A DNA stretch of 64,000 nucleotides from a virus: IMG/VR virus record IMGVR_UViG_3300045988_174813. One strand, given 5' to 3'. Made by a program: the position numbers and the translations under genes. The notes under the pieces are model-generated. The model saw nothing but the letters and a program-made list of their open reading frames with translations, did not search any database and had not been told where the DNA came from. Shown one piece after another: positions 9,303 through 52,192 of this stretch; the first letter of the stretch is position 1; the number at the start of each line of letters is the position of its first letter.

Positions 9303-9358
9303 GAAAAAATTCCATTGCGCGGGCACCATAAAATTACTACAAAGTATGGTGTCCGCGC
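9303..9358 (-). terminator. hairpin terminator after CDS 9373-9540
   Basis: 14-bp stem GCGCGGGCACCATA / TATGGTGTCCGCGC (one mismatch) followed on the minus strand by a T-run. Confidence 0.55.
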
Positions 9359-9372
9359 CGTGTATGTATGTC

Positions 9373-9540
9373 TCAATATCTTACTTCTGTATAAAGATGT
9401 GCTACGCCAGAAATCAGAGAATACACACCTACTAACTCTTGAATTATAAACCGCGCCATAGAAATATTGCCCATATCAATCGCGCCAACACTACCAAAAA
9501 TAAGTGCAATCCCAACAATGATTTTTATCCATTTACTCAT
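9373..9540 (-). CDS. small membrane protein, 55 aa, two predicted TM segments
   Basis: SD AAGGAGAG before the ATG at 9540; MSKWIKIIVGIALIFGSVGAI...LVGVYSLISGVAHLY. Confidence 0.6.
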   Translation of the reverse strand: MSKWIKIIVGIALIFGSVGAIDMGNISMARFIIQELVGVYSLISGVAHLYTEVRY

Positions 9541-9644
9541 TAGAATACTCTCCTTTCGTTTTCTACTTATAGTATATATTATGGAAACCAAATTGTCAAT
9601 ACAGAATTATGTGAACCGCGCGAAACTCTAACCTATATTAGGTT

Positions 9645-9693
9645 AGAAAATATAGTGAAAAGAAACTTCACTACGGTAAAGTAGTGAAGTTTC
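9645..9693 (-). terminator. canonical rho-independent terminator after CDS 9700-9864, immediately followed by palindrome 9627-9647
   Basis: 13-bp stem GAAACTTCACTAC/GTAGTGAAGTTTC (9662-9693), then TTTTCACTATATTTTC on the minus strand. Confidence 0.75.
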
Positions 9694-9699
9694 CTCTAC

Positions 9700-9864
9700 T
9701 TAGTACGTATCGTACCCCATCATTTCCGCCGTGTAATCATCATCAATGGAAATAAATTCCGGGTCGTCAAAATAGAAATAAGCGATTTGGTCGGCGCTGT
9801 CGATGCTGTTGGCGACCACATAGAAATATTCTCCGGTCTGATTGTCATAATACAAATAATTCAT
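9700..9864 (-). CDS. hypothetical acidic protein, 54 aa (below the track cutoff)
   Basis: Hand translation MNYLYYDNQTGEYFYVVANSIDSADQIAYFYFDDPEF...; SD AAGGGGAAA; bracketed by a promoter and a terminator. Confidence 0.55.
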   Translation of the reverse strand: MNYLYYDNQTGEYFYVVANSIDSADQIAYFYFDDPEFISIDDDYTAEMMGYDTY

Positions 9865-10036
9865 AGTAGTTTCCCCTTGTATTTAGTTTGTGGACAAGGA
9901 ATAGGGGTCGGATGGCGGTATCACATAACGCTCTCCATCGGGTCTTTTTCCCTGTCCACATTATGAATTATACCACATTATATGGAAAAGTCAAATGGTT
10001 TCTAACCTATTTTAGGTTAGAATTATGGGATAGGAA

Positions 10037-27262: not shown

Positions 27263-30200
27263 ATGGCACAGAATACGTTAGAGATTGTTGCGAAAGTAAG
27301 GGCTGATACTACAGAGGCTCAGAAGAAATTTTAGCAACTGTTTGCAGAGTTTAAGAATTTTAACATAGATTCACGCGCAGGAACAGAAGTAGCAAAAAGT
27401 TTTGAATAGGTCAATAAAGCCCTTGATAAATTGTCTATGGCTGGCAATAATATTGCTGGGGGCAAGGCTAGTGTAGATTAGCTACAAGCACTGTAGCGTG
27501 CAAGTATAGACGTCGATAAAGCAATTGGCAATTTAAATCATACTTTAGGTAAGATTAGTGGGTCTAGTTTTAATTTTGATATAGATACGCCAGCAATTAC
27601 AAAAACAAAATAGGAAATTGAATCACTTTAGAAAACTCTTTCTGGGTCGTATGTTGACGCTTTAGAGAAAGCCAAACAAGCTTAGATAAAACTTTCTGCA
27701 AGTGGCTATGAGAAACCTATTGGGGGCTATTCTGATTTACTTGATGCTCTTTCGGCGCAAGATTTTGATAAAGCAAAACAAAATCTTACAAAGTTAGAGA
27801 ATAATATTGATATAACTGCGAACTAGATTGGTGCAAAAATCTAGAACCTAAAAACTTCTATTGAAAATTCTGTAAAAAGCAAAGAGGGCACTTTAGTTCC
27901 TTTTGAAACATTTCGTAACGATATAAAGTCTGCTTTAAATAAGGTTAAAGCAGATTTAGATGATTTTAATCAATCTATTGAGAATACTGCGAAAAAAAAT
28001 GATATTTTTACGAATTTTCTCGGGAAACTGGGCGATAATAAAGGGGTTGAAGAATTAAAAAGCTAGCTAGAAGAAGTAAAACGCACTTTAGCTAATTTCA
28101 CTCTAAAAGACGCCACAAAACTGAAAACCCAACTCGAATAGATTTGGGAAACATATACAGACACTAAACGTCCAGACAGCATCTCTGCATAGGCATGGTC
28201 GGGTTTTGGTCGTGCTTTTTAGACACGAATGGGAGATGGCGGTGCTTTCCAAGAACTAATTCAATCTGGAGAGAGGGCATCATAGATAGTTGATAATTTA
28301 AAAACTAAATTAAGTTCTTTTATGGGTGAAGCTGCAAATTTAAAAATCAAGGGCGACTTTACTAATATGGTTAAAGGGCTTAATTTAGATAATTTAGATA
28401 TAGGCAATTTTGACCAACTAATTGATCAAAAAATATAGAATATTAAAAAGTCTATTGCAAATTTACGCATAACTTCTAGTGATGCTTTAACTATAAAGGA
28501 TTAGGAAAAATAGCTTGCCGCGTTGCAGAATTTTAAGACTGCTATTCACGATGCTTTTGGACAGACAACCTAGAATTTAGTGACAGATACTCGTGATAAA
28601 CTACAGCAAGCATTAACAACACTTAGCGGACAAAACCAGGAGCGAGCGTAGGGCGCGCTAGAAACATTTCAGTAGTATTTTCAAACAGTATCCTCTACAG
28701 GAGATAATCTCCTTGGTGCTACTAGCAGCATAGAAACAACTACTTAGGCGATAATAAGATAGAAAGAAGAACTAAGTCAGGTAGTTTCACGTTTTGCTTA
28801 TTTTGGAACCGCTGCTGGTATCTTGAGAACCTTTAGTAGAGTTGTTCGTAGTGCTTTCTAGTCAGTAAAAGAGTTAGACGAAGCAATGAATAATATTGCA
28901 GTCGTAACAGATTATACAACAAAAGATTTGTGGAATTAGATTGATGCATATACTGCCATGGCTCAAGCTACAGGTTCTACAATCAAGGGCTCTTATGAGG
29001 TCGCACAATTATATTACCAGCAAGGTCTTACTGATGCAGAGGTAATGGCGGCTACGAATGAGACACTTAAAATGGCTCGCATTTCAAATATTGATTATGC
29101 GGCAGCGACTGACTATGCGACAGCGGCAGTCAAAGGATTTGGATTGGCTTACCAAGACTTGGCGCATATCAATGATGTGTATTCTAACCTTGCGGCAAAA
29201 ACTGCGGCGGACACCGAGGAAATATCTATTGCTATGAGTAAGGTGGCTTCCATTGCACATAGTACTGGTATGGAATTAGAGACTACAGCAGCATTCTTGA
29301 CATAGATTATCGCCACAACACGAGAGGCTCCTGAAACTGCTGGTACGGCATTGAAGACAGTTATTGCAAGATTTGCTGAAGTTAAAAAGTTAATTTCGCA
29401 AGGAGAAGTTACAGGTACTGACGAAGAAGGTACTGAAGTTAGTGTAAATAAGATTGAAGAGGCATTAAAAACTGCTGGTGTTGCATTACGTGATACTACT
29501 GGTTAGATGCGTGATTTAGATGATGTATTTATTGAACTTGCTTCTCGTTGGGACAGTTTGGATACTATGTAGCAGAGATATATTGCTACTTAGGCTGCGG
29601 GTTCGCGCCAGCAAAGCCGTTTCTTGGCAATGATGAATGACTATGAAGGATTGCAAGAGACATTGGGCTATGCTATGGATAGTGCGGGTGCATCACAAGA
29701 ATAGTTTAATAAGACATTAGATAGTTTGCAAAGTAAGTTAAATAATTTATCTAACGCCTGGACAGAATTTACTACTGGTATTGCTAATTCTGCGGCTATA
29801 AAAGGTACGGTTGATATTCTTACCAAAATACTTGATGTTATAAATGATTTGACTGGCGCACTTGGCAATTTCGGAGGAACTACTTCGAAAATTTTATTAC
29901 TTTTTAGCGGATTGAGATATGGCACTGGTGCAATGGGGAATATATTGAAATTGTTAGGAGTGCCTACAAAAGTTCCAACTATAGGAGATTAGTGGAGTAC
30001 TGGTTTTGGGAGCATTTTTAATGGTCTAAAAGCCGTAAAAAGTAGTAAGCTTGTTCGCACCCAAGAAGTATTATTTGCTCAAAATGAACTAGCCGGTTTT
30101 GAAAGAATGCGCAGTTCATTGGCACAGCAGCTTTTTGCCGCTGAAGATGCGGGCGATATTTTAGGCGCACAAAAATATGGTAAATCATTAGAAGAGTCGA

Positions 30201-33200
30201 ATGCCGAATTACTTGTTTTATAGACAAATTTAGCAAATGCATCAGCAGCCGCCGGAAGCGCGGGGGCGAGCTTTAAGGCCTTTTGGGGCGCATTATCTGC
30301 TCCAGCAAAAGTGTCTGTTGTAATTGCGGGGTTGACTGCTGTAGTTGCTATTATTTAGTTATTCGCAAAATGGATAAAAACTGCAAAAGAGCGAGCAGAA
30401 GAATTTTAGCAACAAATCCAAGACCTGACTTCGATGGCGCAAGAGCTTAATGATTTAGAATCTACCCTTAGAGACTACTAGAGCTATAATGAGGGGATAA
30501 AAAATAAGAACGGCAAGGTAGTTGAGCAAGATTTTTCCACTTTGGTAAAAGGGGTTGGGACATATGGTCAAAATCTTACTCTTACCACAGATGAGTATGA
30601 TAGATATCTAGAAATTTGTGATGCCATTATTGCGAAAAATCCGAAATTGGCGGAAGGATATGATAGTAATGCCGAAGCTATTGCTAACAATAAAGAAGCA
30701 TTAATAGAACTAATTGCAGAGTAGCAAAAGTAGATTCAAACGTAGGGAAAATAGATAAGCGCCCAAATGGATGCTAATTTTTTCAAAAACACTAAAGGTC
30801 AAGCAAAAACTTATTAGAATGAGATAAAATAGGCTAATCAAGATAAAGCTATGCTTGGTGCCGAAAATCTTGGAGACATTTGGAATAAGGCTGGTATATC
30901 ATTCAAAGACTTCAATCTGTTTGGTCGAGCGATAGATGTTAACTAGACTTCCTTATCGGGTCTTATACAAAATTATGATTATTATAGGGACCAAATTAAA
31001 TAGAGACTTAAAGATAAAGATAAGTAGGAGAGAGCACTGTTAGCTCTTCAAACTTATTAGAGCTATTATAATAATGAGATGGAAAAATATGACTCTGTAA
31101 TAGATAACGCTAATTAGGGATTAGAAGACTAGAAAGATACTATAAAGGATATGTATATAGCAATGCTTCCTGGTATTGATGGATGGACTGAATTGTCAGA
31201 TGCTCAGCAATCTTTTATAGAGCAAAGTATTAGGAACCAAGATGTAAATATTTTTGATGCGGGTTCAATGAGCCGGTAGAAACAAGAAATCAAAAACTCT
31301 GTGGAAGAAATGTAGGAAACTTTTAAGATTAAAATTCCTGTTTCTTTTGGGGAAGAACCATCAGTAAATTATAGTTTTGGGGATATAATTGAGGAGCTTG
31401 GTTCTGGAGAATTTTAGTCATTAGGAATAAATGCTGGACTAGAGTGGCTTGATGGATTTTATTAGGCAATATTGAGTTATGGTGAGAAACATACAGATGC
31501 CCAACAATCTATAATGAATTTATTTGGTTTTTCTGGAAGTTGGGAAGATTTTGGCAAATTGGGAGCAAGCGGCTTTGCAGAGACAACTTATGGTTCTTCT
31601 TATACTGATAGAAAAGATGATATGCAAAAATTTGCTATGAAAAGACAAGAAGAGCGTTATGGCACATAGAGTTTACCATATACAGAAAGTGGGCTTGAGG
31701 GTACTGCATCAAGTTGGTATAATTGGCTTGCTGGACTAAGTGGCGATACAGCGAATATAATAATAGACCATTATAGTGAATTAGTTACAGCCCTAAATAA
31801 TAAAGGTGAAGAAGTTACTAAAAATACCTTAGAGCAGGCCGCCAAAGAATATCTAGATGCTGTTACTAATGTAGAAGAAATGATTAAAAAAGCGACAAAA
31901 GCTGGTTTGGATGAAGATAATATTAAGGCTGTTAAGGAATACTATGATGACTTATATAAAGACGAAGATATTGGTTCGTCCTTAACAACAGAGGTAGCAA
32001 TCAATGCGATAGCCTAGAAAGAAGCAGTTGATGAAATATCTTCAAGCTATGAGAATTGGGTTAGTTTATTAGAAGATGCTGGTAATGATATAGACCATCT
32101 AACTACAGATTAGATACTTGCTTTTGACGAAATGAGCGATGCGTTAAGAAAGCTTTTTGGATTAAATGAAAACTTTAAAATTAATAAAGATATTCTAAAA
32201 AGTCCAAAAGTTTTTGATTTAATGCAGAAAGCTGCTGAGGGAGATGCAGACGCAATAGAAGAATTAGGCGATATAATTAGTGAAGACTTTGGTAAGGCTA
32301 TCAATAAAACCGCTAAAGAACTTAATGAGGCTAATAAAGAAACAGAAAATTATACGCCAATTATGGAAGATTTAGCTGGAGGAATGGATCGGCTAGGCGA
32401 AATGATGCAAACTGGCGAATATCTTTCTTTTGCAGATATGGACCAAGGTATGTAGGACACTATTTCTGGTTTTTAGACTTTACTTGATGCTGGAGTGGCG
32501 ACTGTTGATTAGGTACAAGCATACGCATCTGCTAATGGTATTGTCCTTGATATTCAAGAAAGTGATGCTGAAATGGAAGATGTACCTGGTAAGATTAGTT
32601 ATGAAGCTAAAGGCGTTACCACATTAATGGGATAGGAGTATCCTTCAGAAATGACTATGACTGGTACTTCTTCAGTTCCTATGCCTAAAATTGTTGGAGC
32701 ATCCAAGCCTGGCAGTAGTGGTGGAAAGAAACCTTCTGGTGGTGGAGGCGGAGGCGGTTCAAAACCCACTAAACCCAAACAAGACCCCTTCTACAACTAC
32801 ATCAAAACCGTAGATGACTACAAAAAGCATCTCGAATCTCTCCAAGACGTCCAAGAGCTCCTCACCAAACCCGTTGATATCTTCAATAACACCAAAGCCC
32901 AAGAAGACTACTACAAAACTCTCCTTGGCTCTAACCAATCCTACCTCAATCACGTCAATTCCGAACTCGAACGTCTCCAAAAAGAAGCTCAATCTAAATA
33001 TTCCAAATACATCGAAGTATCTATTGACGGCTCTCTCCGTCTAACCGAAGAGTATTGGGCATCCACTGGTGATATCACCGAAGAACTTGATGAATGGATT
33101 GACGCTTATGATGACGTCCTTGGTCGTTAGAAAGACCTTACTGATGAAATCAACGATTATAAGAAAGAGCTAAAAGAACTTTGGGAAGGCTGGCGCGATA

Positions 33201-34321
33201 GTTTCATTGACCTCACTAATGATATTGCAGATGTGTTCCAAGAGCTTGATGAAAAATAGCTTGAAGACCGTCAAGAGTTTTATGAGAAGCTTGAAGAACA
33301 AGACCAACGCTATCTTGAAAGTGTGCGTAATAACATTGAGGAAGAACGTAAGGCGCGCGAACGTGCAAATAGTTTTGAAGACCTTCAAAAGAAGCAAAAT
33401 CGCTTAGCCCTGCTCCAGCGTGATAGTTCTGGTCGTTATGTAAATGATATTGCAGAACTTCAAGAAGAAATAAATTCCGACCAGCAAGATTTAGCTGATT
33501 AGAATGTGGATAATATTCTTGACACTCTTGAAAAGCAAATGGATAAAGATGCTGAGCGCCATCAAGATATTCTTGATGCAATGTAGAAGCAAATTGACAG
33601 TAATGTTGAAAATCGTATATACATTGAGCGCGCAGAGCAAACCATTGCGCAAGGCGAATAGGCTATTCTCGATGCCATTCATATGGGTGAGGATTGGCGT
33701 AATGCTTCTAACGCCGAACGTGAAAAGATGGATGAAGAGTAGGCTACAAATATTGCTGGGTCAAAGAACTATCTTGAAAAGTTGAATGAAGGTATTACTT
33801 CGTCTAGTGAGTATATATCTAAGATGGTTACAGATGCGCTTACTAAATAGACCGAAAGTCTTATTTGGACTATTGGTGATATTCCTCAAAATGATGAAGC
33901 CCATGTGGCACACGCAATGGAGACGACACTGCCTTCAATTCTTGAATAGTTCTTCGCGCGGACCAATACGGCCCAAGACATGGCAGATGACAATAAAGTT
34001 AGTGGTGCTAGATACGCTACAGGTGGTCTTGTAGACTACACTGGCCCCGCTTGGGTTGATGGCACTCCTGGTAAACCAGAAGCATTCCTCAATGCCAATC
34101 AAACTGCTATGATTGCTTCATTTACTGCTAATCTTGCAAAAATGATTTCTGGTAAATTCCCCTCTTCTAACGTAGAAGCAGGAAGTAATTGTGAAATCAA
34201 TATTGATATTGGTTCAATTGGCGCGGACTATGATATTGACCAAGCTATCAATAAAGTCAAACAAGAAATTGTAAATAGCGCGCAGTTCCGTAATGTAACA
34301 TTACTCAATCGCAGACGCTAA
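27263..34321 (+). CDS. tail tape measure protein, 2352 aa, dense in-frame TAG
   Basis: Track ORFs 28958, 29726, 30542, 31472, 32132, 32651 and 33980 are all in frame with the ATG at 27263, and breaks occur only at TAG. ORF 28958 (..AQLYYQQGLTDAEVMAATNETLKMARISNIDYAAATDYATAAVKGFG..) is the TP901-type tape-measure core. Ends in TAA. Confidence 0.85.
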
Positions 34322-35425: not shown

Positions 35426-38400
35426 ATGGCATATACATATTATATACAAACTGGCATACAAACATATGATAGCACTACTGGCACCTGGGTTATCATTGAT
35501 GGAGAAAAAATTACTGCATCTACAACTAAATCAATATTATATTATAGCCTTGATGAAGATACAAATGAGATTTTAGGTAATGTTACAAATATTACAACTG
35601 AGTAGGCGAAAAGTAACCGAGTACCTAGAGTGCGGTATAACATAAATGTTGATAAAGTGCTTGGAAAGCTTACTGAAGCAGAACCTTATTTGACAGTTTA
35701 TGTTGATTATCTTCAACAATTCATTATAGATTACTATTATAAAAATGAGGAAGGCGCGCTAGTAAAAGACCAAGAATCTGGCATAAAGTATGTTGACTAG
35801 GGATATACAATTCGAAATACTTCGCGCCTAAAGGAAGAAACTTACTCTATATATACCAACATGAATGGAACCCAAACATTCCAAAAGAAATACTACTATC
35901 GCCCGATTGCAAAATGGATCTCGCAAACTGAAGATGATAGTACTATTTACAATGCTGGTGACCTTTATAATGGTAATGCCAATTTATCACTTGTGCTTGA
36001 TAATACAAGTTCTTATGTATTGCAAGGAAATTATATTGATGACATTCCGAATCCCAGTCGTGAACCGGATAAAGTTGCAAATGCAATTCTGGTAAAACTT
36101 TATCCCCAAGGTGGCGACTTAAGTTCAACGAGTGATTTAAAGTATATTGATGGCTATAAATCTTATCACTTTTTAGGATGGACAGACACACTAGGTGGTA
36201 TAGTTTTACCTGATGGATATTAGTTAGGTAAACTACCCAATGATGGAGATAGTCTTATTTTATATCCAGTTTGGCAAGAAAGTCCATGCTAGAGGGCCTT
36301 ACTCTCGGCGCAAAGTGATTTATCAAAGCCATCTGCTCCGACTCGCGCGGGCTATCGCTTTTAGATATGGTCCGCGCGCTCACAAGAAGAAAACTTGCCA
36401 ATACTTCAAGACAATACAACAGGAGTAGAAAATCCAGAGCCAATTCCTATCTTTGCTCTATGGCAGAGCGAACTAGAGTATGCCAATGAATATGAGCAGA
36501 CTATTCGTAAAGTACCCTATAAAATTGAAATATGGGAAGACCAATTCAATGAAGAAAACAATAGATGGGAAGAAATACGTTTGGTAACTCTTGGCGCGGA
36601 CACCATGGAGGATTAGGGACGCGCCTTCAATATCAAGTTCAAATAGACCGTATATGGTGAGTTGACGCTTACTTTCTCCCTCTATGGAACATATATTGAT
36701 AATCAAACAGGTCAGCGCGTAGAAAACTATCTTATGCCATATTGCTTCAATGAAGCCAAAGTAAAACTTTGGTATGATGGAGAGTGGTATGATTTTATTA
36801 TAAAAGATATTCAAGAAACTCATAATCAATAGTTTACTAAAACATACACTTGCTAGTATTTACCTATTTATGAACTAAGTAAGATTGGATATACTCAAGT
36901 ATTTAGCTTAGATAACCGTGATGGGAGCGGTATTCAAAGCGCGCCTGAATTTATGGAAAGTATTCTTGAAGATACTGAATGGCGTTATGTGTAGGCAGGA
37001 AGTGATAAAGTTCCTACTGTGGCAGACTTGGAAGTAAATCTAACTGAAACAAGTGAAGAAGTAGTTTATTCTACTGATGTAAAAGACGTAGAAAATGGAC
37101 GTATCAATTATGAAACCTACTCTATTGATGAAAATGGTATTTTACATCCTGGCATCAGTGGTACTATATCTAGTGGTAAGGTGTATATTCCATATAGTTA
37201 GCTAAATAAAGAAGGAAAGATTTTTGGTTGCTTTTCTGAGGGTCTTATTGAAGTTGATGGTGACCTAATTCTACAGCAAAGTTTGGTTACTTTCACAATG
37301 GACTGGGCACTATATCCTCTAACAGATTTTACTATTACAAAATTCACTGCGGAAGTCCCTAAAAAGAGTAATGTTAGTGAGTGGATTGAAGCATCTATCA
37401 AAGAAAATGATAGCACAATTGATACTATTAGTCAGTATTGCAATAAAGGTTCTTCTCCTAAGTATCCATCTTTATATTATCGTGTAAAGACTGCTACTAC
37501 AGATACAGCAATGACCTATTCATCTACTTAGGATAAAAAGCCGTGTTATTTTGGAACGATAGATAGCGTAACTTATGGTAGTGAAAAAACCAAACTTGCC
37601 AGTTTAGGTACAAATACTGTATTTGCCTTTACAAATGGAGATAATTTCTATACCTTCAAATTGAATTAGCTTACTGTCGCGAATGAACTTCCCTTAGGAA
37701 CAGAATATAGATATTATTTTACCGGTAGTACAAATAATTCAATGGTTGCTATTATTGGAGAAGTAGATAGTAGTGTAACCGCAGAGCAATGGGCTAGCAC
37801 GTCAGCCACTTCTGTAGTAGTAAATGGGAAAACGACTTATATTCTACCGCTTACTGGATTTACTGTGTCAGATAATCGTTTTGCTTCTGAGTAGGTATCT
37901 ACGGCTGTCTTTCTTAGTGCTTCTCCAAAGACCTACTACCAAAAATCAGGTTCTGCTGGAGATGAATATTATCGTCCTTACATTGATTTGGCTATTCCTG
38001 CAACAGCAAACTTTCCAACAAATTTTTATGAAGCTTCAATAAATACTGAAGGATTATCGGCAAATAGTAGTCAAGTTCATTCTATTCGGCAGTATTTTAC
38101 TCTCAATGGAAATACTGCTACTGTAGTTGGAACTGCGCCCGTCGATGAAACAGATGGATTTTATATAAAGGATGCTAATGGTCTATACTATTATGATACC
38201 GCAAATCTAAATTATACTCTTATTGCGCCGCCTACGTGGAAAAATGGGGGAGACCGTTATACTCGCGTATCATTTACTCAATTAGAGAGCTATATAATGT
38301 ACCGTAGTCTTGAAAGTTCAAATAGTAACTGTTTTGACCTTACTCAAAAAGTTGCCGAGACTTTTGAAGTTTGGTGTAAGTATATCATTGAGCATAATGA

Positions 38401-39769
38401 TGACGGTAGTATTGCTTATGATGATACAGACCAAATAACTCTTGAACCGCGCAGAAAAAAGTGGGTAACACTTACATCTTATGCGGGCGCAGAAAATCCA
38501 GTAGGTTTTACATATGGTATCAATCTCACCAATCTTTCACGTACCATAAAAACAGATAGCTTGGTTACAAAGCTTTATGTTGACTATAGTGAAAATAACT
38601 ATACTTCTGACGGCTATGTTGCTATTAGTGGTGCAGAGGATAATATAAGTAAGGAAAATGTTCTTTACAATTTTGATTATTTTATTCAAGTTGGCTTGCT
38701 TGAAAAGATGCAGGTATATAACGATTTTTATAAAATAGAGAGTAGTGAGGTGTCCGCGCAAGACCCATTAGAAATGAAGTGCGTAATTGAGGCTAATGGT
38801 AAAAATGGTCCAGGTTACCTTCGTTTGCTTGGCTTGCTGAATACTTAGTATGATAAATTGAGCGAACAAATAAATGGCGCAACAGGATACAGTTATCAAG
38901 CCATCCATTTGAAAGAAATGCTTTCTGCATATAGCTATGCTTCTGCTTTTACAGTAGATGCAACTATTACAGGGCAGGGGGTTGCTCCTTCAATTGGTAC
39001 TTCTACAACAGAGGATTAGGAAACGCTTTAGCGTCTCACTAAAGAGTATAATCGTGTTTCTGCATAGCTGGCCGCCGCGAAAAAGCAACTTGCAAAAATT
39101 GTGGCTCGTAAACAAGAGCTTGAACGTAAATTCAATCAACGCTATGCACGCTATATTCAAGAAGGTAACTGGACAAGTAGTGACTATATTGATAGTGATA
39201 GCTACTATGCAGATGCCTTGAAGGTTAGTAATGATGGCGCGAAGCCTAGTATCAATTATAACTTTACTGCAATTGACCTTTATGCATTACCAGAGTATAA
39301 AGATTATAAGTTCTGTATAGGTGACCGCACTTGGATAGAAGATACAGAGTATTTTGGTTATGAAGAGGATGGCACACCATACCATGAAAGTGTTATTCTT
39401 ACGGAAATAAATTATGACTTGGATAATGCATCTGCATCTACCTTTGCAGTATAGAATTATTCTAACAAGTTTGATGATTTGTTCTAGACCCTTTCTGCAA
39501 CGGCAAATTCATTCAGTCTCAATCAACAGATGTATGGGCGCGCGAGCAAGCTTCTTACTTCTGGCGGGTTGAATGATGAAACTACCCAGAAGAGCCTTAC
39601 ATCTAATAAAGAACTAACTCTTATGTCAAGTTCTGCTATTTAGTTTGATAATGATGGTATTATATTTACCAATGTAGCAAACCCAAATCAAATATTACGC
39701 ATAGGTAGTGATGGTATTTCAATGTCAAATAACGGTGGCGCGAGCTACGACCAACGCCTAATGTGGTAA
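35426..39769 (+). CDS. tail-associated/minor structural protein (Tal, prophage-tail endopeptidase family), 1447 aa, many TAG
   Basis: AGGAGG SD. Track ORFs 35861, 36395, 37019, 37283, 37988 and 39101 are all in frame. Segments such as ..IQEGNWTSSDYIDSDSYYADA.. are typical of Gram-positive siphophage minor structural proteins. Ends in TAA. Confidence 0.75.
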
Positions 39770-43007: not shown

Positions 43008-46000
43008 TCATTCTCTTACCCTCGTTATAATCTGTCCATCTGGAAGTATTTCATCAATAGTTTCTACCAAATGCCAAGGAGTACGAGTATATTTCTTAGC
43101 AATAAAGGTTGAACCGCGACGAATACCGCTGATAATAATTTTATTACCTCGCTTGAACATAGATGGTTCAATTACGTGTTTTTTCCCATCAGACCCGCGC
43201 TCACTAATTTGACGGTCATATTTTGTAAATGCGTCACCAAACATACGAATTGTTACTACTCCTGTTGTGGTGAGTATTGTAATAAGACGCTTAGTTTTAT
43301 CTCGGTCAAGAACTGTTCCTGCGATACGCTCAATATGGAACATAGGAATAGTCTTTCCATCTTTTGTAGTAAAAGTATATTCTGGCTCTGGCTCTTCAGA
43401 AAGTCTATTGAAGTCAGCCCATCCTTGCGCGATTTGGTCAACCTGCGCAAGCTCATGGGGATGATTATAATAGGAGACACTATCCATTTCCCACTTACTA
43501 ATTGAACCAAGACAATACTTATTATATACTTCTTGATAAAGTATATTGTTCAAATTGGTCAGAAGTTCTTCTTTATTTGCTTTGATATAGTCGCGCACGG
43601 GGTTCATAAGTTTCGTATATGTTTTATCCCACCTTGAAGCATCTATACGACCGCAATCATCATTCTCATAAATTATAGCATCTTCGTCAAAATGGGTCTT
43701 ATAAAATTCAAGAGGATAATCTTCTAATTTATAATATAAGCCATCTTTACAATTCTTTTTGAGATATTTTTGAAAGTTGAATATTTTTACCTCAAGCGAA
43801 AGCTCATTGGGGAGTAAATTATATCCAATAAGCATTTGCATATTGCGTAAATTCAATTCTTTTTTCTGGTCTGCAATAGAAGAAATATAGTGCTCCATTA
43901 CTTCTTCGCGTGAAGAGCCAAATTTATCAAAAGCACCAGCTTTGATAAGGTTTACCATTTGGGTTTTATTTATTTTGATTTTAGCTAAAAAGTCTTCAAT
44001 AGAGGTATAGGGACGCGCGTCTATAATCGAAGAAACTAGCTCTGCTCCAATTTTTACAATGCCGCTCAACCCGTAAATAATAGTATTATTGTCTACGTCA
44101 GGAACGAAAGTAAAATCTGAAGCATTTACATCTGGAGGTTCAATAGAAACACCAGCGTTTTTCATTTTATTGATAGCGGTACTTACTTTTCCATAGTTGG
44201 TTGTAGAAGTCTTTTTTTTCTTTTTCTTTTCTATTGATACAACTTCTTCTGATTCGTCATCATCTTCATCTTCTTCTGTTTCTTCTTCTACCAATTCTCC
44301 AACACATGAGACAGGGTCTACATAATCATCAACTTCGGTAATATCTTCTTCGTTGCCAGCGCTATCACAAATAAGACAAGCACAATTCCAAAAAATAATA
44401 GGAAAGTGGAAAGCGAGATTCATTTCTTGAAGAGCAACAAGACTATAGGCAAGGGTATGAGATTTATTGAATCCATATCCTCTACTTGTAGCTACAAGAA
44501 CATTCCATACATAATTACATAAATGCTCACTCAAGTTCTTTTCTCGCATATTTTCAAAATATTGCTTAGTAAGTTTTTCATATTCTGCGGGATTCTTTTT
44601 AGCAATAGATTTTCTAAGTTTATCTGCAAAAGTAAGGTCAAAGCCACCGCATTCGGGAATTTGTACCAATTGCATAAAGCCTTCTTGACTTTCACAAATA
44701 CCATTAGAAGTGAGAAGAACGGGTTCAAGAATTTTTTGTTCTTCCTTAGTCAGTCCATAATTATCCATTTCATCATACCAATCTTGGATATTATGTTTGA
44801 ATCGTGCGAATTTGTGAAGTGGCTGTTCTGCCCCCTTTTCTGGAGCCATCAATCGAATTACTGAATTTAGAGTAGCAAGGTCATCGACGGATGTGGGTTT
44901 AGCCAATGCAATACCTTGAATACCACTTTGCTGTTCCATTTGGAAAAGAGCATTGATTTTGTGCTCCCAGACCATTTTCCACATCTTTTGATTCTCACGC
45001 TCAAGATTATATATTCCAATAATTTTTTCGTAAGTATCCTTCAAAGTAGCTTCTGGCTGAATGTAATTTTGTTTTATCAAAAGGTCAAGACAAGTATGAA
45101 TTTTGTCTAGAGCTTCAACACTCAGTACATCATACTTTATCAAGCTAACTTTTTCTGCATCGTGGAGGTCATATTGTGTAATAATTGTTCCATCGGGTGC
45201 GCGCATAAGCGCAGTAGAATTTTCAAAAGGCTCATCAACAAAAATTACACCGCCTGCATGGATACCAGTTCGACAGATAAGCCCTTCAATTTTATGAGCT
45301 ACTTTCCAAAGTTCTGGATAATTTTGTGTCATTTCTTCTACAAATTTCTTATTAGGAAGAATACCATTTTCTTCATCTCCATAAAAAGTTTGGTCAAGGG
45401 TTTGCATAATACCACGCTCAGATTTTATCATAGAGGCAAGGTAAGAAGCAACATCTACATCAATACCTAGTCCTCGTGCGGCGGTAAGAATGGCACTTTT
45501 AGATTTTTCAGTTCCAAGAGTAAGTACATTAGCCACTCTATCACTACCATAAACTTCGCGGAAATGATTGAGCACTTGCGCTCTGCGCCCGCCCTCAATA
45601 TCAATATCTACGTCTAATACAGATACACGGGCAGGATTTAGAAAACGCCATGGAAAGGTTTGGGTTCGTTCCCAAAGAGGGTTGATTTGTGTAATATCTA
45701 AGAGGTAAAGTAAAATAAATCCTACACCTGAACCACGTCCAGGCCCTACTAGAGTTCCTGCTTCCCAGCAAGCTTCAATTATCTTTTGAAGATTGAGATA
45801 GTAGGCACTCCAATGAGCTTTATTCACGTCAGAAGAAATGCGAGTCATTTCAAGACAAGTATTTATTGCATCATAAGTTGCCTGATTTTGAAGGCGCGCG
45901 TCAGAATTTATTTTTTGAATAATTGCTTTTACAAGCTCTTTATCTCCAATATATTTTGATGAAAGGAACGATTCAAATTCGGGAATCTTTTTGCACCAAT

Positions 46001-46979
46001 TATCAGCATCTACAATATCATCGAAATTTTTCCAAGGCAATTGAGGAATTTTCAACGGCTTTTTGAGACTATAATTTTCGCATTTATTTTGAATTTCAAT
46101 AATAGAATTATATGCTTCTTGAATTTGCTCTATAGACAGCTCAGACATATAAGAACGTATTTCTTCATGCCCCATAAGATAAGTAGTGGCATAGAATCCA
46201 TCTACTTCTCGGTCACCATTTTGTGAATTGAGATATGCCTTGTGGATTGCACGGTCTTCTTTTTTGAGATAGTGAGCATCAAGAGTAATCGTGTATTTGA
46301 CATCTAACTCTTTTGCAAGACGTAATAATGTGCAATTCACTAATTTTTGTTCGGGGTTCGGTGAAGGTTGCATTTCTAAATAGAAATTTTCTTTTCCAAA
46401 AACCTCTTCCATGCGCCGACACCATCGTATAATATAGTCCCACTTCGATTCATCATTAGTGGGCGCCCAATCAAGAATCAAATGAGGAAGAAACCCACCA
46501 AGACAAGCAGTCATTCCAATTACATGACCTGGGTTTTTCCCAATTACATCAATTATATCTTGATAATAAGTAGGTACTCTACGCATACCTCGTGCCATAT
46601 ATGACCTACGCCACGCACGGGTTGAAATTTCACGAATTTGCTGATGCCCTACTAAATCTTTAGCAAGCAGAATAAAGTGCCAATAACGGTCTTTTTTGCT
46701 GTCATAGTTTTCGCTATTTAGGCCATTACGGACGAGATATATCTCATTGCCACGAATAAGTTTGAGATTAGGGTATTTTTCATGGGCTTTCTCGATAGCT
46801 TCTTCTGCTTTTATATGTCCTGCTATGGTTTCATGGTCAGTTATTGCAATGCAAGAATAACCAAGTTCTCCTGCATAATTAATTAGGTCTGGTATCTTAT
46901 TGATACAATCACGCAAACGGAAATTTGAAAAATCAGTATGCGAATGTAATGAACCTGGATATGTTATTTGATTACTCAA
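43008..46979 (-). CDS. dnaE: DNA polymerase III alpha subunit (DnaE-type, PHP domain), 1323 aa, no TAG
   Basis: N-terminal PHP motif LHSHTDFS; polymerase core and OB/HhH regions; TTG start with AGGTGG SD; acidic/Lys-rich low-complexity insert. Confidence 0.9.
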   Translation of the reverse strand: MSNQITYPGSLHSHTDFSNFRLRDCINKIPDLINYAGELGYSCIAITDHETIAGHIKAEEAIEKAHEKYPNLKLIRGNEIYLVRNGLNSENYDSKKDRYWHFILLAKDLVGHQQIREISTRAWRRSYMARGMRRVPTYYQDIIDVIGKNPGHVIGMTACLGGFLPHLILDWAPTNDESKWDYIIRWCRRMEEVFGKENFYLEMQPSPNPEQKLVNCTLLRLAKELDVKYTITLDAHYLKKEDRAIHKAYLNSQNGDREVDGFYATTYLMGHEEIRSYMSELSIEQIQEAYNSIIEIQNKCENYSLKKPLKIPQLPWKNFDDIVDADNWCKKIPEFESFLSSKYIGDKELVKAIIQKINSDARLQNQATYDAINTCLEMTRISSDVNKAHWSAYYLNLQKIIEACWEAGTLVGPGRGSGVGFILLYLLDITQINPLWERTQTFPWRFLNPARVSVLDVDIDIEGGRRAQVLNHFREVYGSDRVANVLTLGTEKSKSAILTAARGLGIDVDVASYLASMIKSERGIMQTLDQTFYGDEENGILPNKKFVEEMTQNYPELWKVAHKIEGLICRTGIHAGGVIFVDEPFENSTALMRAPDGTIITQYDLHDAEKVSLIKYDVLSVEALDKIHTCLDLLIKQNYIQPEATLKDTYEKIIGIYNLERENQKMWKMVWEHKINALFQMEQQSGIQGIALAKPTSVDDLATLNSVIRLMAPEKGAEQPLHKFARFKHNIQDWYDEMDNYGLTKEEQKILEPVLLTSNGICESQEGFMQLVQIPECGGFDLTFADKLRKSIAKKNPAEYEKLTKQYFENMREKNLSEHLCNYVWNVLVATSRGYGFNKSHTLAYSLVALQEMNLAFHFPIIFWNCACLICDSAGNEEDITEVDDYVDPVSCVGELVEEETEEDEDDDESEEVVSIEKKKKKKTSTTNYGKVSTAINKMKNAGVSIEPPDVNASDFTFVPDVDNNTIIYGLSGIVKIGAELVSSIIDARPYTSIEDFLAKIKINKTQMVNLIKAGAFDKFGSSREEVMEHYISSIADQKKELNLRNMQMLIGYNLLPNELSLEVKIFNFQKYLKKNCKDGLYYKLEDYPLEFYKTHFDEDAIIYENDDCGRIDASRWDKTYTKLMNPVRDYIKANKEELLTNLNNILYQEVYNKYCLGSISKWEMDSVSYYNHPHELAQVDQIAQGWADFNRLSEEPEPEYTFTTKDGKTIPMFHIERIAGTVLDRDKTKRLITILTTTGVVTIRMFGDAFTKYDRQISERGSDGKKHVIEPSMFKRGNKIIISGIRRGSTFIAKKYTRTPWHLVETIDEILPDGQIITRVRE

Positions 46980-47074: not shown

Positions 47075-48520
47075 TCAATCACACTTACTCCATCCACAAT
47101 TCTTGCAAATAATGCAACCGCCTTCTTGTATCAATTCCTCGCCACATTGCGGGCATTTATTTATCTTTGCCTTTTGCTTTTCATGCTCTACCCTTGGAAT
47201 ACGAATTTCATTGCTCTCATTATTTTCCATCCAGTCTCTAAATTCATCACTCATTTCGAGAAGCGCACGCCCAATAGCCATCGGACAACAGGCTCCAGGT
47301 GAAGTATCATGTTTAGTTGCATGACGCGTTGCATAAGATGGGCAAGCACCACAAGAATTTAGTTGGTCTACGATATCTTCTAGACCCACACCGGCGCGTG
47401 AAGCAAGAGAAATCATACGTGATAATCCAATCATAAAGTTGTTGCATCCGCCTGTGCTTCCTTTAGAAAAATATGTTTCTTGAAGTAAGCCAGTATTAGG
47501 GTCAAAGAAAGCTTGAACGTGAAGAGAACCACAACCAGAAGTGAGTTTGCGCTTGAGGCCAATTACATTATCATCAGCTACAAGAATATCGCCACGACCA
47601 AGGATGGTACTTGATTTTTTTTCTTCTTTTTTAGGCTTTTCTGTGGTAAGTATACCTTCGCGCATACATCCACTACGATAAACTGTAATTCCTTTCAGCC
47701 CTTGTTTCCAGGCAGTGAGATAAATTTCTTTCACATCATCTACTGTGGCTTCTTTGGGTAGATTGACAGTACTACTAATAGAGGCATCAATATGAGACTG
47801 CCAAACACCTTGCATACAAACGCGGTCTTTTGGAATGATAGTTGCAGATGTTTCAAACCAGGCAGGCAATTCTTCTTCTTCTGTTAGTCCATTCGCTTTC
47901 ATATATCTATCAACAATTGGAGTATAGATTTTATAGTATTCATCATGCCCATGTAGCGACTCTGTTTTTCTCGTATATGAATTAGCAAAAATTGGCTCCA
48001 TTCCCCCAGATACTCCGAGCATTGTGGAAATTGTTCCAGTCGGCGCGATAGTAAGTAATTGGGAATTGCGAAGTCCATAGTGATCTACTAGTTCATCTAC
48101 CTCTGGGATGACATTTTTTTTATAAAATGGAGTTTCACGGACGGCTTTTGTATATTTGGGGTAGGCTCCATCTTTTTTAGCAAGCATCGCACTCGTTGCA
48201 AGAGCGCTATTGATAAGGTGTAAGCCAATTTCATCACTAATTTCTCTTGCACGCTGACTACTATATGGAATTTCCATTTCAATTAGCATATCGGCCAATC
48301 CCATAATACCTAATCCGCACTGGCGCCAATCACGGACAGTTTCTCGTTGTTCTTTTAGAGGATGCTTAGGTAGCCCTTCATCCAAAACATCATTCAAAAA
48401 ACGAATACCAATATCTACTGTTTCAATGAAACTGTCAATATCAAATTCTTTATCTTTTACAAACATTGAAAGATTGATACTACCTAATAGGCAGGAGCCT
48501 CCCGCTGGGAGGGGCTCTTC
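47075..48520 (-). CDS. nrdJ: B12-dependent (class II) ribonucleotide reductase NrdJ, exon 2
   Basis: Begins EEPLPAGGSCLLGSINL, continuing the ..TNPCA end of exon 1 (the NrdJ active-site signature TNPC-x-E-x-P-L..C.LGS.NL); C-terminal zinc ribbon CPQCG..CKNCG. Confidence 0.85.
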   Translation of the reverse strand, partial: EEPLPAGGSCLLGSINLSMFVKDKEFDIDSFIETVDIGIRFLNDVLDEGLPKHPLKEQRETVRDWRQCGLGIMGLADMLIEMEIPYSSQRAREISDEIGLHLINSALATSAMLAKKDGAYPKYTKAVRETPFYKKNVIPEVDELVDHYGLRNSQLLTIAPTGTISTMLGVSGGMEPIFANSYTRKTESLHGHDEYYKIYTPIVDRYMKANGLTEEEELPAWFETSATIIPKDRVCMQGVWQSHIDASISSTVNLPKEATVDDVKEIYLTAWKQGLKGITVYRSGCMREGILTTEKPKKEEKKSSTILGRGDILVADDNVIGLKRKLTSGCGSLHVQAFFDPNTGLLQETYFSKGSTGGCNNFMIGLSRMISLASRAGVGLEDIVDQLNSCGACPSYATRHATKHDTSPGACCPMAIGRALLEMSDEFRDWMENNESNEIRIPRVEHEKQKAKINKCPQCGEELIQEGGCIICKNCGWSKCD

Positions 48521-49667
48521 CATTGTATTATCATAGAGACTTTTTATTCTCTACATCTGGAGATTTCTCTCATATCTCTTATTGAGAATACGTCTGTCAA
48601 TTCAGACCAGTTTAGCATATATTTTCAGAAATTTCTTTCAGATATTCCAATAATTTTTTCTTTGAGGGGTTATTACATAAAGCTGTGCTAATACTTCTCC
48701 AATCAGAAAAGCCATATTTTGAAGAAGCAATTTCTTGTATTCCCTGCAAAGTAGTTGCTATTCTATTGCCAGGACAATTTTGAACTAAAGACTAATGAGA
48801 CAATACCCATTCAGCTATATCTTTCTAAAATTCTTTATTACGCTGAGTGGTTTTTTCTTTTTTCTGCTCAGTGGCAACCTAAGAAGCTTTTTTAGCATTT
48901 ACCTTATTAGCACATTGAAGAGAACAATATTTCCTATTACTCTCATATGGTGGAACAAAGAAAGGCTCTCCACAACATTGGCAAATGATTTTTATCCTTT
49001 GAGCTTCACATTTTTCTTGCCAAGCTTTTGTGGCTTTTATAAGACCTTTTTTCATTTTCTCTGCTATTATTGGGTCTTGCCAATTTTCTTTTTTCCTAGC
49101 ACCAATTTTTTGTTTTGTTTCTTCACTTTTTGTACCACTTTTTCCACCAGGCATTAGATTGTATCCTATATCATGATTTGTAGAATTATAGAAATCAATC
49201 CAATAAATTTCTCTATCATTTAGCTACTCTAAAGAACTACATTCTTCTAAAAGTTCTATAGAAAAATTTTCTTTTCCATATTTGAGTAAAGCATTATGAA
49301 AATAGTTTTCAGGCCTATTGCCTTCTGCCTGATATAAAGCTTCTTTCCAGTGTTTCTCAAAGCGCTATTCTATAGTTTTAGTAGTTTGTCCTATATAAAT
49401 CTTATTATTTATCTTATTGGTTATTTTGTAAATATACATATTCTACCTCCATTTATCATTCTCCAATTATAAGTGGCGGTTGTAGAATATCTATCCTAAA
49501 AAATTCCTGTCGAGCACTCGTGGTGAAATTATATTTATTCATTCACTATGCGTTACACTGCCTATATACCTTTCGCAATTATATAGGTTAGCACGGTATT
49601 CCCATATTATAAAAGACTTAGGGTTCACCGTTTTTGCTCGATGTTTTACGTGCGCCCAAGAACTTTA
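48521..49667 (-). mobile_element. putative group I intron (about 1.15 kb) with GIY-YIG homing endonuclease, splitting nrdJ
   Basis: It interrupts nrdJ inside the catalytic NPC-x-E motif. Exon 1 ends in T and the intron ends in G, as group I splicing requires. The exons fuse in frame. Boundaries are inferred. Confidence 0.65.
48879..49439 (-). CDS. GIY-YIG homing endonuclease with NUMOD3-like C-terminus, 186 aa with 2 TAG
   Basis: GGAGG SD. MYIYKITNKINNKIYIGQT.. (GIY..YIG), ..R..KH.., N-terminal part joined in frame through two TAG to track ORF 48879-49154 (SEETKQKIGARKKENW). Confidence 0.75.
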
Positions 49668-50456
49668 AGCACACGGATTCGTACCTGCATACTTGAATTT
49701 AGGGTTATTTGAAAGTAAATTCCAATTTTCAATTCTATCCCAGAATAATATTCCAGGCTCTGCCCAATTCCAGTTATTTTCGCATAATCTATCAAAAAGC
49801 TTATCAGCCATAGCAGTCTTGATAATTGTTTCATTAGTTTCTGGTCGGCTAAACTCCATTATCCATTCTTTATGTTCAACTGCACACTGCATAAAATCAT
49901 TTGTAATACGAGTTGAAATGTTTGCTTTGGTAACGCTATCTGGTTTAGCTTTGATATCAATAAATTCTGGGAAGTCGGGATGATGGCAATCCAAAGAAAT
50001 CATTAGTGCTCCACGTCTTCCTTGCTGCCCTATTTCTTCTGTTACTTGACTATAGCCCGCCATAAAGCTAACTGCGCCTGAACTTTCTCGTGCAGCATTG
50101 CCCACTTTAGCTCCGCGTGGAGCAAGTTTAGATATATCTATGCCACATCCGCCACCATAGGAATAAGTTCGTGCAAGTTTTTTCCGACTATCATAAATTG
50201 ATTCCAAATTATCTTTTGGGGGTTCAACAACGTAGCAATTGCTCAAGCTCATCTTACAATCGTCCACCCCGCGTCCGCTAAGAATACGGCCACCAGGGAT
50301 AAATTTTTTGCTACGAATAGCGTCTTTATATGTGTCGACTCCGCCACTTACGCGGTCAAGCCACTCTTCAAAACTTTCGTTATTATGTTGATATTTACGC
50401 TTCCAGATATCAATACCAATTTGATTATTGGGGCCAAGCCACTGTTCTACTGTCAT
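49668..50456 (-). CDS. nrdJ: class II ribonucleotide reductase NrdJ, exon 1
   Basis: GGGAGAG SD before the ATG at 50456 (MTVEQWLGPNN..); ends ..KYAGTNPCA; the track start at 50474 overlaps the upstream gene. Confidence 0.85.
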
Positions 50457-50470
50457 GCAGTTCTCTCCCT

Positions 50471-52192
50471 TCAAAACATAAGACGATTATCATATACATT
50501 ATAATCATCTACAAAAATTTGGGGTGTATATTGTCCGCCCCATTCATTTACATTTGCACGCCCTACTACTTCTAAACGCATAGATGATAAATTTTCTATT
50601 TGTTCGATAAACGCACTTGCGCGGAAAAACATATATGCTATACCATTTTGAATTATCTTCACAGTATCTTTATTTTTACCCATTATTTGGACATCTTTCT
50701 TTTCAACATCAATATTAGTTATTGCAATAATTGGTTCTTGGCAACCTTGACCATAAATTGAATGATATTTATCTATATCATAGATTATATCCTCTATATC
50801 ACTATCAAAAGCTTTGCGCTCAAAATTTACTTTATAATATGTTGTGCCAAAATTATATTGAGCTAAATCCTTATCTGCGCGCGCTAATAAATCAGGAATA
50901 AGGTTGTGTTTGATAGATGAACCAAATGCCTAAGAATGTCCTTGGCAATATTCAAATAAGCCAAGCTCTGTAAGATAGCCCTTCAAATCTTCAAGTTTTG
51001 AATTATTTATTCCTCGCGCGGAACCGCGAGAATAGCCTTCATTATTTTCTCGAAGTACAAGAGTTGGCTTTTGGTATCTCGCCGCGCACTTCATTGCAAG
51101 TAACCCATTGAGTGTTGGATTGAGACAATCTTCATCATTCAACTCAACAACTAGTAAATTATGCTTGTCTAGTCCTTGGTCTTGAATACGAAAATCAATT
51201 TGTTCAAGTGCGCACTCTAATTCTTTATTCTAACGAGCCCGCGCGTTCACACAGTTACGAACTACTTGAGTAGCCAATTTTTCACTCATTCCTTTTTCTC
51301 CACGTTTTGTTGAGGGGACAATTTTTTCTCCATCGATAAACGCAAGGAACAAATTTTCTTTTTCTTCCATTGTCCCAACACGAATAAGCGCATTGATAAG
51401 TGGAGTAACATAAAAGGCAATAGAAATATAATTCATGCGCGCACCGATAGAGTAAGACTGCTTGTCAAGAAAAGATTGAAAAAGGAAATTCTTTATTGGC
51501 TTTTCTAAACCCTGCTTTACAAGATAAGCAATTTCTGGTTCAACCATTTGCGCCATATCGCTTATAAGCCCAAGGGCTACCAAGTCAATATAGTCATCAG
51601 CATAATTTACTCCATAAAGGCTATCTAAATAACGACAAAATTGGTAAACTACGCCCGCACCAGTGAGCTGTTTGTTTTTGTAATTTGGTGAAGATTGGTT
51701 ATTGATTATAATTGCATTTTTAGATTGTACATCTACTTCATGATGGTCAAGACAAAGAACAGGTATGCCACAATCGTGGAGTACAGTATGTTGTTCTTCA
51801 TCATTACTACCTGCGTCAGGGACAAGAATTAGGTCAAGAGTTTCACTCTCTTCAATTAGTTCATCAATAAGGTCAGATAGGCCATGTTGCTTAGCAGTAT
51901 GAATTTTGAAATCCAATTGTGCTTCTGGATATAGTCTTTTGATATACATCCATATGGTACTAGCACTTGTCATTCCATCAACATCGCAATCGCAAATAAC
52001 TACAATATGCCCATTTTTTTGGAGCACCTATTTGAGTAAATGCGCGCCTTCTCGAATATTTTCTAAATCTAAGGGAGATTGCAATACTGATTTAGATGGG
52101 TCGCGCAAAACATCTGCATCAGCGCCCCAACTAGCTACTAACTACTTCACATAATTGCTTTTATAATTTTCATTACATAATTTATATTCCAT
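50471..52192 (-). CDS. recJ: RecJ-like DHH single-strand exonuclease, 573 aa with 4 TAG
   Basis: Track ORFs 51230-52027, 50930-51142 and 50471-50683 are in one frame, separated only by TAG. DHH motifs ICDCDVDG, VPDAGSND, CLDHHE, GHS[TAG]AFG. The ATG overlaps the dnaG stop (TAATG). Confidence 0.8.

Follow-up and report, generated by a model that had tools for sequence, protein, structure and literature searches.

We analysed an interrupted ribonucleotide reductase (RNR) gene, nrdJ, on the minus strand of a 64,000-nt stretch of viral DNA (IMG/VR record IMGVR_UViG_3300045988_174813; the whole stretch is called the window below), together with the insert that interrupts it, a candidate group I intron, and the endonuclease gene inside that insert. 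Two open reading frames (ORFs) encode the parts of the reductase. The product of the first (49665-50474) ends in ...KYAGTNPCA, followed by TAA, and that of the second (47075-48523) begins M-EEPLPAGGSCLLGSINL at an in-frame ATG (48523-48521). The initial annotation had described both of these ends and had proposed that the two ORFs join in frame, as 263 + 481 codons, to restore a class II RNR signature. We found the ends where it placed them, and the same count follows from the ATG at 50456, which is likely the nrdJ start and has GGGAG upstream; in a second carrier of the insert, contig L019, the gene caller likewise gave exon 1 a length of 263 aa. The joined product of 744 aa bears out the signature. 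It contains a single complete Ribonuc_red_lgC domain (Pfam, 7.8e-101, profile positions 1-523 in one stretch) plus TSCPD, and it is collinear with NrdJ of Thermotoga maritima (1xje, a B12-dependent reductase), aligning without a gap across the junction (GTNPCAEEPL versus STNPCGEIGL). The split lies between the catalytic Cys and Glu of the same loop, with the Ala codon of NPC-A-E on one side and the Glu codon on the other. Coordinates of all features are collected in Table 1.

Table 1. Features of the nrdJ locus, in window positions. Helix strands are given as RNA.
Feature	Position	Strand	Details
nrdJ exon 1	49668..50456	minus	263 codons, from ATG 50456 to GCT (Ala) 49670-49668
nrdJ exon 2	47075..48520	minus	481 codons + TGA; starts GAA GAG CCC (EEP...)
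Group I intron (very probable)	48521..49667	minus	1,147 nt; absent with exact boundaries from L001, L002, L003 and L004
GIY-YIG homing-endonuclease gene	48612..49439	minus	275 codons + TAA; ATG 49439; Shine-Dalgarno GGAGGU 49450-49445
P1	49649..49675	minus	exon CGUGUGCU (49675-49668) / internal guide GGCGCACG (49656-49649); direct reading
P3, 5' strand UCGAGCA	49635..49641	minus	pairs with 49516-49510; 7 pairs, 5 double changes, 99% of cells paired
P4 enclosing P5	49593..49631	minus	ACGGUG 49631-49626 / UACCGU 49598-49593; P5 49623-49601
P6/P6a	49557..49592	minus	P6 GCU/AGU, AA, P6a CCUAUAUA/UAUAUAGG, loop AUUGCGAAAGG; 11 pairs, 10 double changes
P7, 5' strand GCAUA	49547..49551	minus	pairs with UAUGC 48619-48615; preceded by J6/7 GUAAC; P3/P7 pseudoknot
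P7.1 hairpin GUGAA/UUCAC	49523..49546	minus	near-invariant loop UGAAUAAAUAUAAU; between P7 and P3'; double changes at 5/5 pairs
P3, 3' strand UGCUCGA	49510..49516	minus	covariation, same helix as 49635..49641
P8	48626..49509	minus	stem CAGGAAUUU (49509-49501) / AAAUUUCUG (48634-48626); direct reading
P7, 3' strand UAUGC	48615..48619	minus	within the last codons of the endonuclease gene
3' domain	48521..48608	minus	conserved tail GAUAAUACAAUG up to omega-G 48521
P9 GGUCUG/CAGAC	48608-48592	minus	side-by-side comparison, direct reading
Small hairpin of 3' domain	48587-48575	minus	
P9.1 GAGA-GAAA-UCUC	48571-48560	minus	common to L011 and L015; GAAG-GUAA-CUUC in L018
P9.2 GUAGAGA/UCUCUAU	48554-48533	minus	loop AUAAAAAG; double changes at 5/5 pairs

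We scanned viral contigs for other alleles with the joined NrdJ protein as query, which returned five loci. In one of them, L001, nrdJ is uninterrupted: a single open frame matches 750/750 residues of the joined protein at 100% identity (the 750-residue query is counted from a TTG at 50474, six codons ahead of the probable ATG). At the nucleotide level exon 1 is 100% and exon 2 99.93% identical to L001, the sole mismatch in the 1,446 nt of exon 2 being position 47698, and the two sequences agree at 99.9% over about 9 kb. The L001 junction reads ...AATCCGTGTGCT / GAAGAGCCCC... (TGTGCT/GAAGAG). The gene is also uninterrupted in L002 and L003 (97% aa identity) and in L004 (57%), all of which read NPCAEEPLPAGG. 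The insert starts TAAAGTT, so that exon 1 reads straight into a UAA, and its last letters are ACAATG; because its ends share no base with the neighbouring exons, the boundaries 49667 and 48521 are unambiguous. The intervening stretch, previously put at about 1,147 nt, is exactly that long, and the suggested ends, T49668 for exon 1 and G48521 for the intron, are the only splice sites compatible with the intron-less sequence. Since it is present or absent among near-identical alleles, the insert is an optional element within one phage population. No GenBank phage matched the whole locus in a search for near-identical sequences.

RNR active sites often harbour inteins, which abound in some phages related to the crAss-like group (PMC7886860), so we considered an intein, along with a group II intron or an insertion sequence (IS) element, as the nature of the insert. 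An intein is excluded because 1,147 is not a multiple of three and the first in-frame codon is TAA. Pfam gives GIY-YIG alone in the insert ORF and neither a reverse transcriptase nor a transposase domain; direct reading of the insert ends revealed no group II boundary motifs, and no target-site duplication was present there (terminal inverted repeats were not searched for). An element of any of these kinds is therefore next to inconceivable.

The insert ORF has a GIY-YIG domain (PF01541, E=7.5e-10), and its frame is open only with TAG as sense: TAG occurs in frame at codons 25, 72, 187, 205 and 216 (first bases 49367, 49226, 48881, 48827 and 48794), with no TGA or TAA before codon 276. The GIY-YIG gene claimed by the initial annotation thus stands on its domain and its homologs, while the need for a code in which TAG is Gln had gone unremarked. 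The read-through protein has 842 database homologs, many of them 270-280 aa long and aligning end to end at 40-93% identity, some under the JGI name 'group I intron endonuclease'. Residues Y4, Y15, G17, R26, H30, E77 and N94 are invariant in a 23-sequence alignment. The closest homolog (P0001, 93% identical) has Q at all five TAG sites, which may merely reflect the code used by the gene caller.

If TAG is counted as sense, coding sequence covers 87% of the window, and no ORF needs read-through of TGA or TAA. Use of the codon is uneven. The plus strand (window 1-40000, for example 27263-34321 and 35426-39769) includes ORFs of 2,352 and 1,447 codons with 65 and 21 TAGs, respectively, whereas the minus-strand replication block (40860-64000), with genes for dUTPase, PolIII-alpha, NrdJ, a RecJ-like protein and DnaB, has few or none. 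In nrdJ itself there are 0 TAGs in 744 codons against 20 CAA/CAG; in the endonuclease gene TAG makes up 5/18 Gln-equivalent codons. Two endonuclease codons (near 48866 and 48746) are CAG in the window and TAG in L019, an exchange that directly indicates Gln as the meaning of TAG in this lineage. Codon usage thus points to a phage that reads TAG as Gln. What looks like two 'ribonucleotide reductase' ORFs with a stop-riddled 'pseudogene' between them is really one intact nrdJ and one intact endonuclease gene.

We next considered the RNA of the insert, beginning with its splice sites. U49668 lies opposite G49656 as the canonical U.G wobble of P1, and the last intron nucleotide is G48521 (omega-G), so that the U / omega-G rule invoked by the initial annotation holds at both ends. 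The same intron occupies the same nrdJ site in L019 (ENA ERZ28436086 NODE_8, 119 kb, 92% nt identity to the window). There the exon has CCA where the window has CCG (both Pro), and the guide reads GGCUCAUG, a compensated change from G-C to A-U. An intron of the same RNA family also sits at the same junction (TGTGCT/...G/GAAGAG) in Clostridioides phage pCD1602_4 (also ES-S-0107-01), whose NrdJ protein is 50% identical; its exon has CCU and its guide GGCUCAAG, forming a U-A pair. The second pair of P1 is accordingly G-C in the window, A-U in L019 and U-A in the Clostridioides phage (L020), its exon base being the last letter of a Pro codon. It would be difficult to account for three Watson-Crick pairs that track a synonymous exon base if P1 did not form and have a role. 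The pCD1602_4 intron holds an HNH-type ORF in P5 and no GIY-YIG gene in P8, in a region that apparently uses the standard code, and the related phage LIBA6276 is without this nrdJ intron.

To place the insert within a family, we compared it with GenBank phages by blastn. The first ~170 nt gave matches at 70-80% identity (E down to 1e-20), placed exactly where the exon-1 ORF of a split gene has its 3' end. The carriers were terL of crAss-like cr7_1 and cr131_1, Staphylococcus phages SA2 and vB-SscS-F1 and Clostridium phage 1181; MCP of bajarodcaudo virus 1; the helicase gene of cr6_1; and the polymerase genes of Dulem virus 41 and a Leptolyngbya phage. An exact-pattern scan of viral contigs had found few members (0 hits with an 18-mer of the intron core, 1 hit with a family pattern), and the annotated phage collection was therefore used instead. 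Many GenBank records of split terL, MCP, helicase and polymerase genes around family introns (L006, L007, L008, L013, L015, L016, L017 and L018) give two coding sequences (CDS) or a truncated CDS and no intron feature. Two copies of this RNA family occur in each of L013 (MCP) and L011, and terL of L008 apparently has two introns of different types.

We aligned the cores of 14 homologous introns from split phage genes (terL, MCP, helicase, polymerase), after cutting out the variable P5, P8 and P9/P9.1 hairpins, and counted P3, P4, P6/P6a, P7, P7.1 and P9.2, a total of 39 pairs including the P3/P7 pseudoknot. Standard pairs filled 98.7% of 541 cells, compared with 77.7% after shuffling and 30-43% when one strand was slid by 1-3 columns. 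Double-sided changes affected 28/39 pairs, and the covariation score of 0.662, against 0.240 for shuffled alignments, was reached by 0/500 shuffles. The middle pair of P6 takes all four Watson-Crick types among the 14 introns. P7 is 100% paired, with A-U replaced by G-C in 5/14 sequences, and holds invariant G-C and C-G pairs; by analogy with td and Tetrahymena, G49551-C48615 may be the guanosine-binding pair. The P1-P9 fold, whose absence the initial annotation had named as grounds for giving up a group I intron, was thus found, with covariation to back it.

All members share one order of elements: P1, P3, J3/4 (AAAA), P4, a variable P5, P6, AA, P6a, the loop AUUGCGAAAGG and J6/7 (GUAAC), then P7, P7.1, CAMGAG, P3', P8, J8/7, P7', P9, an optional P9.1, P9.2 and the tail GAUAAYA..AUG. 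A partner for the conserved CAMGAG segment after P7.1 was looked for, and neither covariation nor a separate P7.2 was seen. Minimum free energy (MFE) folding of an ORF-deleted construct recovered P1 (extended), P6a, P7, P7.1, P8, P9, P9.1 and P9.2; its failure to recover P3 and P4 is expected because the core is pseudoknotted, and MFE folding serves as a sanity check only. A hand-drawn version with P3 as GGGAAUAC/GUAUUCUC and P7 as AGAC/GUCU was dropped once the homologs gave the real P3, P7 and P9.

The P8 loop of the window intron spans ~866 nt and holds the endonuclease gene, where homologous introns have a hairpin of 12-31 nt. The last eight codons of the gene (EISENIC*) overlap the P8 3' strand, J8/7 and the P7 3' strand (48612-48634). 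Nearly all aligned homologs of the protein end in NIC or NVC, that is AAU AUA/GUA UGC, the sequence of J8/7 and the P7 3' strand; hence the ORF always runs into the ribozyme core, an overlap of ancient origin. Where no P8 ORF is present, family members nonetheless have UGA or UAA in that frame after UGC.

Extra pairing between P7 and P3', of the P7.1/P7.2 kind, is the published criterion of subgroup IA2 (PMC3984707, PMC2248736). The block ACGGUGAA-CCUAAG..UAUGG-AAUACCGUGCUAA (P4-P5-P4'-P6) and J6/7 are common to classical td-like introns, such as those in a Bastille-type Bacillus phage DNA polymerase gene and in a Twort-like Staphylococcus phage. Because of this td-like block and J6/7, and because P7.1 stands between P7 and P3', as it does in subgroup IA, we take the intron to be IA2-like, its P7 being a variant. 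Bacterial and phage group I introns often have an in-frame UAA straight after the 5' splice site (PMC3984707), as this one does. Taken together, the insert is very probably a mobile, td-like (IA2-type) phage group I intron whose P8 loop carries a GIY-YIG endonuclease gene.

Several observations weigh against this assignment. Rfam returned 0 hits for the whole window at the gathering threshold, and RF00028 had no hit in the region even at E<=10, where only noise appeared (snoRNA, LhrC). The Infernal check proposed in the initial annotation therefore came back empty. On the five homologous loci Rfam reported one tRNA and no intron, and since the model thus overlooks even compact ORF-less members of the same intron family the negative test is uninformative; its low power also shows in a score under the gathering threshold for a different, td-like intron of L002. 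P2 is absent. A P10 may be formed by the P1-loop UUCUU (49662-49658) with exon 2 AAGAG (48519-48515), though it would have just 5 bp and be offset by one base. The C-G pair that extends P7 past a one-base bulge of the 3' strand in many family members is C.A in the window, where the base concerned is part of the endonuclease stop codon. Finally, a tRNA scan of the 64-kb window found no suppressor tRNA(CUA) and no tRNA gene at all, so a suppressor would have to lie elsewhere in the ~119-kb genome, or recoding would have to proceed by other means.

Some of these points would also fit a decayed intron that has lost splicing, leaving nrdJ a pseudogene and the endonuclease gene dead: under the standard code the endonuclease frame has five in-frame stops, Rfam is silent, and the C.A mismatch adjoins P7. 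Yet 5/5 of the stops are TAG, which is plainly sense in this genome, and hundreds of homologs match the read-through protein along its whole length. None of the core helices is disrupted in the window. Between the window and L019 the intron core has 96-98% identity, compared with 87-92% for the neighbouring exon segments, and the one P1 change is compensated; the exons are undamaged, like those of the intron-less allele. Decay is thus very unlikely.

A gene in working pieces was also weighed. Here a free-standing endonuclease gene would have split nrdJ, and the two fragments would assemble without splicing, as for nrdA-a/nrdA-b of Aeromonas phage Aeh1. Such an arrangement would be in keeping with the TAA that closes exon 1 and the in-frame ATG of the exon 2 ORF, and functional split RNR genes without introns are among the cases documented in PMC3653736. 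That ATG, however, is the conserved intron terminus (GAUAAYA..AUG/UUG/CUG), which recurs in homologs of unrelated genes, and no Shine-Dalgarno sequence precedes it, whereas nrdJ and the endonuclease gene each have one. The ~320 nt of non-coding flanks are a covarying ribozyme core, the guide sequence co-varies with the exon, and the break would separate catalytic Cys and Glu within one loop. We regard independent fragments as highly improbable and retain the mobile group I intron.

Reading the intron as active suggests how nrdJ would be expressed. The gene would be transcribed as a single pre-mRNA, on which ribosomes translating exon 1 would halt at the UAA directly after the 5' splice site. 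The intron would fold through P1 with its U.G pair, the P3/P7 pseudoknot, P4-P6, P7.1 and P9-P9.2; an external guanosine would attack after U49668, and the freed exon 1 would then attack after omega-G 48521. The joined RNA would read ...CCGUGUGCU / GAAGAGCCC... (UGU GCU/GAA GAG) and encode the intact 744-aa class II reductase with the motif TNPCAEEPL. We infer this guanosine-initiated self-splicing, which would restore TNPC-A-E, from the sequence. The P5 motif CCUAAG...UAUGG (49601-49623), read directly, is a canonical 11-nt GAAA-tetraloop receptor and may act as one; with the GAAA tetraloop of P9.1 (48560-48571) it suggests a possible long-range clamp. Receptor and P9.1 GAAA tetraloop do not consistently co-occur in other family members.

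The patchy distribution among near-identical genomes is consistent with homing into intron-less alleles. During co-infection the endonuclease would cut an uninterrupted nrdJ, for example the L001 allele, near the junction, and repair would copy the intron in. As the endonuclease gene has five TAGs and nrdJ none, full-length endonuclease would probably be made only late, once TAG suppression is active. This follows published proposals. Borges et al. (bioRxiv 10.1101/2021.08.26.457843) described a group I intron endonuclease rich in recoded codons in an early gene of Agate phages, gut phages with a recoded stop codon, and proposed that in-frame stops block the endonuclease until late infection; production of the T4 td endonuclease is likewise described as delayed (PMC3984707, in its account of Gibb and Edgell 2010). 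A delayed endonuclease would also keep ribosomes off P8 and P7 while nrdJ mRNA matures.

A further, tentative idea, less likely to be right than wrong, is that TAG codons and the overlap of ORF and ribozyme form a code-gated switch that times homing and host-gene expression. In the early phase, with TAG not suppressed, translation of the endonuclease gene would end at codon 25, well short of the ribozyme core; the intron would fold and splice, and NrdJ would be produced. In the late phase, ribosomes reading through the five TAGs would enter P8 and P7, so that endonuclease is made, the ribozyme is unfolded and nrdJ maturation is turned off. If true, a change of the genetic code would time both homing and nrdJ expression.

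Among known systems, T4 td/I-TevI (a group IA2 intron with a GIY-YIG endonuclease) is similar in being a phage intron in a gene of nucleotide metabolism. The nrdJ-intron endonuclease, like I-TevI, has an N-terminal GIY-YIG catalytic domain and, to judge by its sequence, a Cys4 element. The two introns presumably also share the P4'-P6 sequence 'CCGUGCUAA', the J6/7-P7 stretch 'GUAAC-G...' and a P7.1 between P7 and P3'. They differ in the position of the ORF (P8 here, P6a in td), in P7 (GCAUA/UAUGC here, what we take to be GACUAU/AUAGUC in td), in the lack of P2 and in the host gene, nrdJ. A delay of the endonuclease would come here from TAG codons, in td from late promoters and sequestration of the ribosome-binding site (RBS). 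The parallel with Agate phages has its own limits: there TGA is read as Trp, here TAG as Gln; host gene and intron differ, and the nrdJ-intron ORF runs into P8, J8/7 and P7 of its ribozyme. Meng et al. (2007) reportedly describe a group I intron in an RNR gene of a cyanobacterium.

Group I introns in RNR genes are recorded from T4 nrdB/nrdD, Twort nrdE, SPbeta bnrdE/bnrdF and nrdE/nrdF of the Bacillus cereus group among the examples in PMC3653736 and PMC2248736. They resemble the nrdJ intron in self-splicing, in carrying homing endonucleases and in sites adjoining conserved catalytic residues. Their hosts are class I or III genes, whereas the present host is class II nrdJ, split between the Ala and Glu codons of NPC-A-E. 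A 2013 phage survey lists just two split nrdJ genes, of which the one from Thermus phage phiYS40 has no intron (PMC3653736). Intron-rich, recoded gut phages have been described (PMC7886860).

The terL, MCP, helicase and polymerase introns belong to the same RNA family (70-80% core identity, identical helix layout, same conserved loops) and differ in host gene and in having an ORF that is absent, in P5 or elsewhere; GenBank shows these genes mostly as two CDS with no intron feature. The pCD1602_4 nrdJ intron shares both the RNA family and the codon junction and differs in its HNH-type ORF in P5. The occurrence of the same site and RNA family with GIY-YIG in P8 and with HNH in P5 is a clear case of an intron and its endonuclease evolving independently. 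The class II nrdJ Ala/Glu site, recurring in distant phages with different endonucleases, is new, and it extends the known range of RNR sites occupied by group I introns to the NPC-A/E catalytic loop of class II RNR. New, too, are a TAG-based form of the recoding idea, a counterpart to the published proposal that stop-codon recoding delays intron endonucleases, and the documentation of an intron family unseen by Rfam. This family, with P7 GCAUA/UAUGC, is widespread in phages (crAss-like, Staphylococcus, Clostridium and cyanobacterial) and undetected by the Rfam group I model. For annotation, gene callers and Rfam alike overlook the intron-split nrdJ and its endonuclease gene.

Two neighbouring genes showed further insertion differences. 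In L001 a different td-like group I intron of 1,111 nt (2267-3377) interrupts the RecJ-like gene. It is absent from the window, where its site corresponds to ~51098-51100 inside the RecJ-like gene 50471-52192, and it holds a GIY-YIG gene, likewise with in-frame TAGs. L002 has the same RecJ-like-gene intron without an ORF (~3133-3377, 245 nt), which RF00028 scores at 35.7 bits (E=1.5e-7; gathering threshold 50). L001 also has a 1,120-nt insert in its PolIII-alpha gene (8862-9981), absent from the window (44467/44468, gene 43008-46979); it shows R/S-like motifs of the classical group I type (GTTCAGAGACTATA ... GGTATAGTCC) and an ORF of LAGLIDADG type in which TAG codons occur. With the nrdJ insert, these make three intron presence/absence polymorphisms within about 10 kb of 99.9%-identical genomes. 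Elsewhere in the PolIII-alpha region, L002 6357-9263 failed to align with window 46971-44027 in blastn, although its flanks are about 92% identical; this stretch could reflect divergence or another insertion.

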